Shown here: positions 49,561 to 52,240 of the stretch, piece by piece
Position numbering within the stretch: the stretch's first letter is position 1
How the letters are laid out: every line of letters starts with the position of its first letter
IMG/VR virus record: IMGVR_UViG_3300017780_004980
Location: 33,767-97,766 of that record
Length of the DNA: 64,000 nt
Origin: a virus
Direction: 5' to 3' (one strand)
Position numbers and translations under genes: made by a program
Notes under the pieces: model-generated
What the model was told of the DNA's origin: nothing
Databases searched by the model: none
The model's input: the letters and a program-made list of their open reading frames with translations, nothing else

Positions 49561-50280
49561 TTAGCCGAGCGACCATAGCTTCCGGTTTGTTCTCACCCGG
49601 TGCCACGACGTCAGCACGAAGTAGTCTTTGACCAGCGCGAAGGCCTTCTTGTGCGGAACCCCATGGATCAAATCCACCACAGTCGCTGCATCCAGGTCGT
49701 ACACACCCCAGCTTGCATTGCCGGCGTTGAGATGCTCGGCCTGAAGCGCCTTTCCGAGCGCGCAAAGGGCGTCTGCCATCTCATTGCCCATTTTGCCGGC
49801 GTGTCCCGGCGTATGCTTCATGGTCCAGTTACCGATCTTGCTGCGGGCCAGTAGGCCTTCCCAATAGGGTTGGTTCAGCACCGGCTTTCCGTCAGCGGTT
49901 TTCCACCCTTTGGCCTGCCAAGTGCTTACCCATTGGGTCAGGCCCTTCACGACGTACTGGCTGTCCGACCAGATTGTGAATTCCGGCCACGGGCAGGCCT
50001 TCACCTTGTCCTCGCCGATGTTGCAGATCACGTCGTTGGTGCAAACCCCTTTGAACCCGAGGACGCCGCAATCCGAGCAGCGGCGGGCCATGTAGTAGGG
50101 GACGATGCGCTCGAAGGCGATGATCGCGCCGAGCAGTTCCGCCTGATTGTTCGAGAGCTGCGGGGCCGTGACGATGGCCGCCGAATGCAGCTGCCCGTCG
50201 ATGTAGAGAACGGCTGCGCCGGCGCCTGCCGAGTGCTGCTCAACGATCCCGCCGTCGACGTAAATTTCATATTTGGGCAC
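49561..50280 (-). CDS. rnhA: Ribonuclease HI with Cys-rich insertion and C-terminal extension
   Basis: YVDG, NNQAEL, SDSQYV, W...GWKTADGKPV.N, GHAG..GNEMAD. Confidence 0.9.
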   Translation of the reverse strand: MPKYEIYVDGGIVEQHSAGAGAAVLYIDGQLHSAAIVTAPQLSNNQAELLGAIIAFERIVPYYMARRCSDCGVLGFKGVCTNDVICNIGEDKVKACPWPEFTIWSDSQYVVKGLTQWVSTWQAKGWKTADGKPVLNQPYWEGLLARSKIGNWTMKHTPGHAGKMGNEMADALCALGKALQAEHLNAGNASWGVYDLDAATVVDLIHGVPHKKAFALVKDYFVLTSWHRVRTNRKLWSLG

Positions 50281-50343
50281 GGACCCTCCTGGTCCTTCAA
50301 AGACAAGGTGGGGGGCCAGGCATTGCCTATCCTGACCCCCCGG

Positions 50344-50415
50344 TTTGTCATCGAGGTATCGAACCCCGAACCGACGGATTATGAATCCGTAGCTCTACCA
50401 TTGAGCTAATGACAG
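50344..50415 (-). tRNA. tRNA with CAT anticodon (Met, or Ile2), C1:A72 mismatch, no encoded CCA
   Basis: CTGTCAT TA GCTC AATGGTA GAGC T ACGGA TTCATAA TCCGT CGGTT CGGGG TTCGATA CCTCG ATGACAA A folds as a full cloverleaf. Confidence 0.85.
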
Positions 50416-50424
50416 TCGGCTTCG

Positions 50425-50588
50425 TCCAACACTTACGACCTAGACGCCTCATTTTCATTTGGTGCTGCTCTACCACTGAGCTAAGGGCCACCAAATACCT
50501 TGTAGTTTCTTCCAAGAGATTTGGCTGGCCCTCGGGGACTCGAACCCCGGACCTGCATTGGTCAGGACGTCTTAAGCGGGTGTCTGGA
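50425..50588 (-). ncRNA. Circularly permuted tRNA-like RNA (YrlA/Y-RNA-like topology)
   Basis: T arm plus AGGGCCA-G-CCA precedes TGGCCCT-TA-GCTCAGTGGTAGAGC (D arm); acceptor stem closed by a hairpin; flanks pair into a long terminal stem in place of the anticodon arm. Confidence 0.75.
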
Positions 50589-50719
50589 ACTCCGTCTGTT
50601 TAAGTCTTAGGGATATCACGCTGATCAGCTACTGTTTCTGAACCACGCAAGGCGAAGTCCAAGCAGCTATCAATACAACAACAAGGCTTACAGCAAGTCT
50701 GTCCCTTTTGGGCTCTGGA

Positions 50720-50753
50720 GGGGGTGGGGCGGATCAGCCCGCTCACCACCCCC
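50720..50753 (-). other. GC-rich hairpin just after the 251-aa gene (processing or stability element)
   Basis: GGGGGTGG...CCACCCCC stem with inner GCGG/CCGC; no U-tract. Confidence 0.55.
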
Positions 50754-50761
50754 AATCTCGA

Positions 50762-51517
50762 TTACTTCAGGCCGGCGTGGAGGTAGCCGAACAGGGCGGC
50801 ACCGAAGCCGTCGCCGTTGATCTGGTCAGCGCCGTTGGCCTTCTGCCTCGCCTTCTTGACCGCCCGGATCAGGGCGTCGAGGCGTTCCAGAAGGTCGGAC
50901 TTCTCGCCGGCCGAGAGCATGCCGGAAGCTTCCTGCACGACCTTCTTGGCCACCGGGACGTCGACTTCCAGCGCCTTGACCTGGGCCGGGTGTTCCTTGG
51001 TCGCCGGCGACAGCTCGAAGGGGGTCAGGGTGCGGCGGGTGACCGACCGCTCCTCGGGGTGCTTGTTCAGGTACACCCCCTGACGGACGGCGTCCGGCTC
51101 CCAGACCTTGCCCGGCGCCAGGGTCGGGATGGCCTCGTAGACGGCGCGCAGTTCCTTCAGCCGGCTTTCCATGCCCAGCAGGGCGGTGGCCGGCACGTTG
51201 CCGAAGATGACCACGCCGTTGACGACAACGTCGGCGTGGGCGACCTGGTTGGTCAGTTCCTTCGACAGGAAGGCGTCGAAGTATCGGCCGACCGCGCCGG
51301 TCATGTACTTCAGCTTGGCGCCGACCGTGGTGACCAGGGCCTTGGTTTCGCTGGTGTTCAGGTTCTGCTGGCTGTCGTCGAAATACTTCGTTTCGGCCGT
51401 CTGTTCCTGGAAGTGGTCCGGCTTCTTGTCGAAGGTCGCCCGGGTTTCCGTGATGATCTTGTCGGCGGTGCCCTTCAGGTCACCCTCGACAGCCAGCACC
51501 TCATGCAGTTTGGCCAT
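50762..51517 (-). CDS. Conserved hypothetical protein (MAKLHEVLAVE... / ATKEHPAQV family)
   Basis: 251 aa with its own promoter; from memory resembles an uncharacterised family of phages and actinobacteria (not verified). Confidence 0.8.
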   Translation of the reverse strand: MAKLHEVLAVEGDLKGTADKIITETRATFDKKPDHFQEQTAETKYFDDSQQNLNTSETKALVTTVGAKLKYMTGAVGRYFDAFLSKELTNQVAHADVVVNGVVIFGNVPATALLGMESRLKELRAVYEAIPTLAPGKVWEPDAVRQGVYLNKHPEERSVTRRTLTPFELSPATKEHPAQVKALEVDVPVAKKVVQEASGMLSAGEKSDLLERLDALIRAVKKARQKANGADQINGDGFGAALFGYLHAGLK

Positions 51518-51596
51518 CCGTGGCCCCTTTTCTGTTCGTCGGTTGATGCCGGGATAAACCCCGGTGGGCCCTCCATGGCCCTGTAGTTACCCTCAG

Positions 51597-51624
51597 ACTA
51601 TAGCTGGGGATAACCGGGTGACAA
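51597..51624 (-). promoter_or_regulatory. Sigma70-type promoter with DnaA-box-like TTATCCCCA in the spacer
   Basis: TTGTCA-N16-TATAGT (GCTATAGT). Confidence 0.65.
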
Positions 51625-51637
51625 TAGGGTTGTTCGG

Positions 51638-52240
51638 TCAGAAGGGAATTTGATCGTCTTCGTCTTGGTCCGTGCTCATGGAGTGCTCCATAGGCGGGTC
51701 GAACCGGTCGTTGTTGAAGTTCGTCCAGGCGTGCGGCCCGTACAGCCTCAGCACCGCTTCGTCGTAGGCCAAGGCCGCCTCAATCGGCGAGTCGTAGTAG
51801 CCAATGTGCTGGTACTGGCCATCGAATTTCAGCTTGGCCCGCCAGCGATGCCCCCGCTTGTCTACGCCTCGGAAGCCGGCCGCGCTGATCCGAAACTTGG
51901 CGTTCATATTCTGGGCGTTCGACCCGAAGCCACATACCCGCAGGTTCTTCCGCCTGTTGTTCAGGCCGCAGAAATCCCAGTGATCCACCACGCCGGCTGT
52001 ACGAGCCTGGGCCACCATCCGGTGCATGTAGAGCTTCTTGCGGGTCCCGGGCTCCTGTGAGGCTGCGTAGCAGGTGTTTCTGCCGAACTGGACCCGCCAG
52101 CTGTACTTCGAGACCAGCGGGTAGTCGGCCTCGTCGATGATCGCTTCGTAGCCGCGCGTCAGGAATATCAGGCGCTCACCCTTCTTGGGCTCGAAGCGCA
52201 CAGGCTCAAAGCGGCTCTCTTCGATTGCAAGTGGTTGCAT
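51638..52240 (-). CDS. HNH endonuclease with AP2 DNA-binding domain
   Basis: AIIDEADY, MHR, VDH...GLNNRRKNLR, FRGV...WRA....HIGYY.....AALAYD. Confidence 0.92.
   Translation of the reverse strand: MQPLAIEESRFEPVRFEPKKGERLIFLTRGYEAIIDEADYPLVSKYSWRVQFGRNTCYAASQEPGTRKKLYMHRMVAQARTAGVVDHWDFCGLNNRRKNLRVCGFGSNAQNMNAKFRISAAGFRGVDKRGHRWRAKLKFDGQYQHIGYYDSPIEAALAYDEAVLRLYGPHAWTNFNNDRFDPPMEHSMSTDQDEDDQIPF
52226..52239 (+). repeat. 14-bp motif (copy 9, at the HNH-AP2 start codon)
   Basis: Exact match. Confidence 0.9.

Follow-up and report, generated by a model that had tools for sequence, protein, structure and literature searches.

What kind of RNA is encoded where the two halves of a tRNA occur in reversed order behind an uncharacterised gene? 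This question is raised by a locus in the phage record IMGVR_UViG_3300017780_004980 of IMG/VR. The stretch that was analysed (the window) has 64,000 nucleotides and corresponds to bases 33767-97766 of this record, which is a complete phage of 97.8 kb with direct terminal repeats. In the window, a gene for a 251-amino-acid protein of the Pfam family DUF7873 (50762-51517) is followed by an RNA whose 3' domain folds as the elbow-and-acceptor half of a tRNA, a long stem standing where the anticodon arm would be. The RNA is one of a family of tRNA mimics that resemble the bacterial Y RNAs called YrlA. By its genetic linkage this family goes with DUF7873 rather than with Ro60, the partner of Y RNAs, and it is apparently undescribed in print. 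The gene and the RNA together probably mark an undescribed RNA-protein system.

All features of the locus described here lie on the minus strand. A first-pass annotation, made from the sequence alone, had pointed out a circularly permuted tRNA-like RNA at this place, and every element and coordinate that it listed was present on that strand, base for base. The tRNA-mimic domain occupies 50425-50588 and is supported by its fold, by the Rfam YrlA model and by R1, a covariance model of the family. It consists of terminal and outer stems, a T arm, a capped acceptor stem and a D arm, and it also holds an asymmetric A/U-rich internal loop. Read 5' to 3', the first strands of the terminal stem (50580-50588) and of the outer stem (AGACGTC, 50566-50572) are followed by TGC (50555-50557), the variable region AGGTC (50550-50554), the T arm (50533-50549) and the 3' strand of the acceptor stem, AGGGCCA (50526-50532). 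Directly 3' of this strand lie the discriminator G and CCA (50522-50525), concealed in a capping hairpin that is formed by CCAAAT/ATTTGG and CTTG/CAAG (50491-50524). The acceptor 5' strand TGGCCCT (50484-50490), the D arm (50467-50481) and GCA (50463-50465) come next, and the second strands of the outer stem (GGCGTCT, 50442-50448) and of the terminal stem (50425-50432) close the domain. The anticodon arm is reduced to a 3-bp remnant (TGC/GCA), which continues into the terminal stem. Because there is no anticodon loop, the role as a decoy for anticodon nucleases that had been suggested for this RNA is unlikely. In the acceptor stem G3 pairs with C70, so that G3:U70, the alanine identity pair, is absent, as the annotation had stated. 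All helices of the mimic domain were reproduced by the minimum-free-energy fold (-65.7 kcal/mol, z = -3.1), and 1 of 200 shuffled sequences folded as well.

It had also been proposed that the sequence downstream of homologous genes be checked for a permuted tRNA fold with covariation, and such a fold was found there. Three sets of DUF7873 loci were used, namely 24 loci from IMG/VR, 80 from bacterial genomes and 80 from metagenomes; the bacterial loci span Nostocales, Planctomycetota, several actinomycete families, Myxococcota, Chloroflexota, Spirochaetota and Thiotrichaceae, and the phages that carry DUF7873 range from about 60 kb to jumbo size. In a simple pattern scan, a permuted tRNA-like head was found just downstream of DUF7873, often as two heads in tandem. 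The model R1 (135 positions) was then built from 27 copies of the RNA, with the window excluded. In a search of 610 kb it matched the window copy over positions 1-135 of 135 with 47.7 bits (E = 1.7e-10), and this copy was the sole match in the window and in the whole phage. The search gave 162 matches, 149 of them at DUF7873 loci. A match was counted as linked if it lay on the same strand within 900 nt downstream of the gene, a zone that makes up 8% of the searched sequence, and 137 of the 149 fell into this zone, which is an enrichment of about 130-fold. A linked match was present in 89 of 99 DUF7873 loci, which come from phages and from at least seven bacterial phyla. Of the other loci, most had weaker matches, a head variant whose D arm resembles that of tRNA-Leu, or too short a flanking sequence. 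The metagenome set, with 68 evaluable loci, served as an independent test of R1: all 72 matches were on the strand of the gene, 69 were in place, and 56 of the 68 loci had one, to which the pattern scan added five loci. Within one cyanobacterial order, an adjacent R1 match was found for 17 of 18 full-length DUF7873 genes. When the RNA region was compared by blastn with 50,697 phage records, no match was obtained.

The RNA is the only constant companion of the gene. Within 3 kb of DUF7873, no other protein gene was common across loci, and the neighbours were lineage-specific; in Actinomadura, for instance, an M1 peptidase and ABC-2 transporters are encoded there, and in Nostocales an AI-2E transporter. 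The distance from the stop codon to the start of the model has a median of 92-120 nt in the family (range 2-638); in the window, the T arm begins 212 nt past the stop codon. The number of heads follows the DUF7873 tree, with 22 changes compared with 50 when shuffled (0/200 shuffles as low). The window RNA is one-headed, its head resembles the second head of the two-headed bacterial RNAs, and a plain hairpin stands in the first position. One-headed forms make up 14 of the 22 nearest rows on the tree, in a clade that is weakly supported and has the window on a long branch. In two loci (L097, 3283-3557; L022, 3801-4019) the Rfam tRNA model fused the 5' half of head A with the 3' half of head B because their acceptor sequences are identical, and strand exchange between the heads of a single RNA might be possible. 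An RNA exclusive to DUF7873 was considered and rejected, since R1 also matched Ro60-linked YrlA, tandem-tRNA artefacts and a few unlinked heads. Many of the other cyanobacterial matches were artefacts of 27-gene tRNA arrays, and a few cyanobacterial heads linked to neither protein lie beside tRNA genes (for example L221, 3308-3625; L224, 3061-3189). In three jumbo-phage loci, tmRNA (transfer-messenger RNA) genes were found 2-3 kb from DUF7873 (L007, 5505-5895; L019, 1476-1873; L023, 6032-6434).

The structure is conserved in the family. Among 145 distinct members, aligned in a way that was fitted to the R1 structure and favours it, 94% of the cells pair (99.3% in the T stem and 99.0% in the acceptor stem), compensatory changes occur at all 20 pairs, and the covariation score is 0.75, compared with 0.21 after shuffling (0/500) and at most 0.17 after sliding. 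The acceptor strands were also paired 7/7 in a scan independent of the model. Since cognate flanks pair far better than mismatched ones (-21.7 versus -14.2 kcal/mol, p = 1e-31), the terminal stem is a feature of the family, and among the window's nearer relatives its sequence changes with the pairing kept. The sequences of the D and T loops are strictly conserved across the family.

As judged from its sequence, the 251-amino-acid open reading frame is a real gene, since its product is a full-length match to DUF7873 (PF25283, E = 1.3e-68). There are more than 1000 homologues, none of them named; some are 57-65% identical to the phage protein, and the metagenome scan gave none above 50% identity. 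The protein had no match in PHROGs, NCBIfam, PADLOC or PDB sequence profiles, and in Pfam it matched DUF7873 alone. In the AlphaFold2 model (pLDDT 86, pTM 0.72) it is composed of four long helices and a sheet, and an invariant TKEHPAQVK is placed at the tip of a long beta-hairpin. The best Foldseek hit was Rogdi with a TM-score of 0.23, the best VIA-align hits were helical bundles with Z of at most 9, within noise, and the ESM Atlas gave DUF7873 clusters only. A literature search found no paper that mentions DUF7873.

To our knowledge, Y RNAs have been understood only as partners of Ro60. With relaxed thresholds, the Rfam YrlA model (RF02553) aligned over its whole length (1-114) with 43.3 bits (E = 2e-8 in a 501-nt search), the tRNA-like core matching nearly base for base and one helix of the basal stem being deleted; at the gathering threshold of 69 bits there was no YrlA match in the phage RNA. 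The topology of YrlA, in which a T arm, a loop-closed acceptor-like stem and a D arm are enclosed by an end-to-end stem, is present in full, which bears out the YrlA topology assigned by the first-pass annotation. That annotation had counted the full D arm and the retained CCA, from which RNase P processing was expected, as differences from YrlA. A full D arm has, however, been reported for YrlA RNAs, and a 7-bp acceptor stem, cleavage by RNase P and a CCA end are all known for the YrlA of Mycobacterium smegmatis (PMC4201824). The differences lie elsewhere. The published Ro60-binding motif, GNCGAAN0-1G on the 5' strand of the basal helix (PMC4201824), is lost in the phage, where the aligned stretch reads GACGUCCUG with both A positions replaced. 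The Ro60-linked copies in related jumbo phages carry a GAAUGC...GACUACA signature that the window RNA lacks. The absence of a TROVE (Ro60) gene, noted earlier for the window, holds for the complete 97.8-kb phage, and the gene next to the RNA is DUF7873. TROVE was found in 5 of 25 related phage records and in one of the eight complete ones, and the related jumbo phages with Ro60 have separate, higher-scoring YrlA copies beside the Ro60 gene. One phage of 392 kb (G019) has, besides Ro60 and DUF7873, 15 matches to the YrlA model over 50 kb (97-147 kb), two of them at 55-62 bits.

In a controlled sample of 121 genomes from one cyanobacterial order, DUF7873 and Ro60 are independent: 4 genomes had both DUF7873 and TROVE, 16 DUF7873 only, 22 TROVE only and 79 neither. 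TROVE was thus as frequent among DUF7873 carriers (20%) as among non-carriers (22%), which argues against the link between the two that a first sample could have suggested. In the complete genome of Anabaena azotica, the module is present and TROVE is absent.

Several other parts of the locus belong to its description. A putative sigma-70-like promoter, TTGTCA and TATAGT with a 16-nt spacer (51597-51624), precedes the start codon of DUF7873 by about 80 nt; it has 10 of 12 consensus matches, is the sole such site in 50200-51750 (shuffle mean 0.2) and is a consensus match only. An HNH endonuclease gene with an AP2 domain, of the homing-endonuclease type, is located directly upstream of it (51638-52240). 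The first helix of the RNA, GGGGGUGG / CCACCCCC (50720-50753), is G+C-rich, has 8 bp and was read by eye. It starts 9 nt past the stop codon, is followed by CUCCAG and occupies the place of the larger first domain or first tRNA-like head of relatives, in which a GGG...CCC helix and then YCAG can be read by eye 3-12 nt past the stop codon. The linker between this helix and the mimic domain (50589-50719) has a lower GC content; it is predicted to form a long, irregular hairpin and contains a cluster of (C/A)AGAC pentamers. Four of these pentamers fall into 40 nt at 50569-50608 (about 0.08 expected) and one more is at 50697; the cluster was spotted post hoc and may be a protein-binding repeat. 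Repeats of the AGRCU type flank the heads in bacterial copies too. From stop codon to terminal stem, the whole 348 nt folds with z = -3.0, and none of 100 shuffles was as good.

Downstream of the RNA, a tRNA-Met(CAT) gene (50342-50415), identified by ARAGORN and by Rfam at the gathering threshold, begins 10 nt past the terminal stem of the mimic and is the sole tRNA gene of the phage. This tRNA has a C1 x A72 mismatch, which is a hallmark of bacterial initiator tRNA, and only two G-C pairs at the bottom of the anticodon stem. A tRNA-Met(CAT) is also close to the module in five other loci (L005, L008, L009, L018 and L021). Between the tRNA and the RNase H gene stands an 11-bp G+C-rich hairpin followed by the T-rich tail ACCTTGTCTTTG (50310-50341), which is probably the terminator of the unit; its 10-nt loop exceeded the limit of the terminator scan, so it was not called and was read from the sequence. 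Because this hairpin intervenes, the co-transcription with RNase H that had been suggested is doubtful. In that scan no terminator was called between the DUF7873 gene and the RNA, and in relatives the terminators come after the RNA.

The evidence tips, though not by much, towards reading the locus as one unit that comprises the promoter, DUF7873, an RNA of about 340 nt (50425-50760) and tRNA-Met, and whose RNA is a member of a YrlA-like family of tRNA mimics tied to DUF7873. Its working can be sketched by analogy with the YrlA RNA of M. smegmatis, which in vivo undergoes cleavage by RNase P and acquires CCA, the 7-bp acceptor stem being the feature that permits the cleavage (PMC4201824). Tallied over 155 distinct copies of the RNA, CCA follows the acceptor strand in 58 (37%, where about 1/64 would be expected by chance; 70% in the metagenome group) and C74 is present in 133, and the enrichment of CCA suggests a similar, tRNA-like processing. 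Host tRNA enzymes would take the head for a pre-tRNA: RNase P would cut 5' of U50490, and the 3' side would be trimmed to the CCA at 50522-50524. The resulting head would consist of two pieces, joined through the acceptor stem and the terminal stem, and would end in CCA. DUF7873 would bind the part that is unlike tRNA, namely the basal stems, the internal loop and the linker, and the particle would act on, or compete for, tRNA-recognising factors during infection, with no need for Ro60. The first-pass annotation had proposed a dedicated ribonucleoprotein particle of this kind. The genetic side of the proposal held, as the gene and the RNA are linked in about 90% of more than 160 loci and the RNA is the sole conserved neighbour; the physical binding is an inference. 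A bolder version is conceivable and is offered as a tentative proposal: DUF7873 and its RNA would form a self-sufficient particle, its RNA matured by RNase P and by trimming to CCA, and would constitute a second family of tRNA-mimic particles beside Ro60-Y RNA. In phages, a compact form with one head, encoded among the tRNA genes, would serve to protect or re-tune both the tRNA and the translation apparatus during infection.

A number of observations weigh against the favoured reading. The window copy has only one head and is without the flank motifs RAUCRA and UUAAAC that bacterial copies carry, the covariation was counted on an alignment fitted to the model's own structure, and the tRNA-like head also occurs unlinked to both DUF7873 and Ro60. 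No recognisable RNA-binding fold was found in DUF7873 by the structure comparisons, and the protein is near neutral (isoelectric point 7.0 in the phage, family median 6.4). The host of the phage may encode Ro60. In the first sample, from several other phyla, TROVE was present somewhere in 22 of 30 DUF7873-bearing bacterial genomes, and in a metagenome-assembled genome of Planctomycetaceae (L107, 3237-5581) DUF7873 with two heads faces, at a distance of about 2 kb, a convergent Ro60 gene that has a YrlA-like RNA of its own, the only side-by-side case of both modules that was seen. Because of these last two observations, a pathway shared with Ro60 is possible. They also fit an explanation in which the RNA is an ordinary divergent YrlA, supplied by the phage to load or hijack host Ro60/Rsr and nucleases, with DUF7873 as an accessory of the Ro60 pathway. 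The full-length match to the Rfam model would be expected from it, phages are known to carry Ro60 with YrlA (PMC4201824), as do five related phages here, and in a Mycobacterium metagenome-assembled genome DUF7873 and its RNAs lie upstream of RtcB, in the place that Rsr has in the Salmonella operon. However, 43.3 bits is well below 69 and a basal helix is deleted, the sequence GACGUCCUG breaks the AA of the published motif, the signature of Ro60-linked copies is missing, DUF7873 and TROVE are statistically independent in the cyanobacterial genomes, and complete genomes have the module without TROVE. We therefore regard this explanation as unlikely. In the Mycobacterium genome just mentioned (L091, 69-2502) the order is DUF7873, head A, head B and RtcB RNA ligase, and together with the Planctomycetaceae locus this hints that RNA repair or quality control may be a common theme. 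RtcB as a general feature was considered and dropped: DUF7873 is rare in Mycobacteriaceae (4 of 101 genomes) and does not adjoin RtcB in the other three, and RtcB was found in 1 of 25 related phages.

The RNA could also act in cis only, as a tRNA-like structure in the 3' untranslated region that recruits RNase P, blocks exonucleases, sets the 3' end or stability of the DUF7873 mRNA and aids the maturation of tRNA-Met. That it always follows the gene immediately and in the same orientation, that no terminator intervenes and that terminators come after the RNA in relatives would suit this role, as would the lack of RNA-binding features in DUF7873, and it has been argued that a CCA-ended tRNA-like 3' end would resist exonucleases (PMC4201824). 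A stabiliser, however, could do without a second head of a different kind, without internal loops and flank motifs conserved across seven phyla and without strictly conserved D and T loops that form a full tRNA elbow, and the link to one protein family and to no other gene would stay unexplained; we doubt this account about as much as the ordinary YrlA. Still less probable is an aminoacylated two-piece RNA that enters the ribosome or binds EF-Tu as a tmRNA- or tRNA-like factor, with DUF7873 in the role of SmpB. This would agree with the perfect 7-bp acceptor stem with G73-CCA, the family-wide CCA enrichment, a gene order as in permuted tmRNA genes and the presence, in several jumbo phages, of tmRNA genes and clusters of tRNAs close to DUF7873. 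Against it, ARAGORN, which recognises permuted tmRNA, found tRNA-Met only at the locus, the beta-tmRNA model of Rfam scored 9.4 bits (threshold 84), and the encoded CCA is missing in 63% of copies. Since G3:U70 is present in 11 of the 155 copies and the discriminator base is variable, no single amino-acid identity is implied. A tag-like frame after the D arm (APNENEASRS*) was rejected, as no such frame is kept in relatives, and the tmRNA-like role raised by the first-pass annotation thus found no support. That the halves are what is left of tandem tRNA genes after decay, or that the end of one tRNA happens to adjoin the start of the next, can hardly be true. Tandem tRNAs do give false model matches (PMC4201824), as was seen in the cyanobacterial arrays of 27 tRNAs, but in the phage and more than 150 relatives the acceptor strands pair 7/7 with each other and show compensatory changes, neither half is flanked by an anticodon arm, and the flanking sequences pair in a stem that is conserved; this account is refuted by the covariation seen in both the acceptor and the terminal stem.

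If a DUF7873-linked family of tRNA mimics is the correct reading, the tRNA-like head would be a reusable module with several protein partners, and a simpler two-gene system would be available for asking what tRNA mimicry is for. The family would be a second widespread tRNA-mimic RNA, tied to a protein without a solved relative and spread over phages and no fewer than seven bacterial phyla. For phage biology, it would add one more conserved non-coding RNA to the tRNA-related cargo.

Among known systems, a tRNA-like RNA was reportedly proposed by Burroughs and Aravind in 2016 to accompany SPFH/Band-7 proteins in RtcB RNA-repair operons. That would likewise be a tRNA-like non-coding RNA with a partner other than Ro60, and one DUF7873 module lies directly upstream of RtcB; DUF7873, however, matches only its own Pfam family and no solved fold convincingly. 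In the permuted tRNA genes of the red alga Cyanidioschyzon, the joined halves restore a complete tRNA including the anticodon arm, whereas the phage RNA keeps the 3-bp TGC/GCA in its place. Two-piece (circularly permuted) tmRNA occurs in alphaproteobacteria and some other lineages. It shares with the phage RNA an acceptor (3') piece that is encoded first, a removable linker and a tRNA-like domain without anticodon loop, but the phage RNA has a normal D arm and lacks G3:U70, a conserved tag frame and a link to SmpB. The likeness to YrlA (RF02553) comprises the order of the parts, the lack of an anticodon loop, the conserved T and D loops and the occurrence in bacteria and phages. The phage RNA differs from it in its sub-threshold score, the missing basal helix, the lost Ro60 motif and its position after DUF7873 instead of Ro60, and its mimic domain is the 3' portion of a longer RNA, with about 340 nt in all. 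With the M. smegmatis YrlA in particular it has in common the 7-bp acceptor stem, an encoded C after the acceptor strand and a predicted two-piece, CCA-ended head. That RNA is bound by Rsr and encoded upstream of rsr, whereas the phage RNA follows DUF7873 and encodes the whole CCA, buried in a capping hairpin of 31 nt from which it is predicted to be released by processing.

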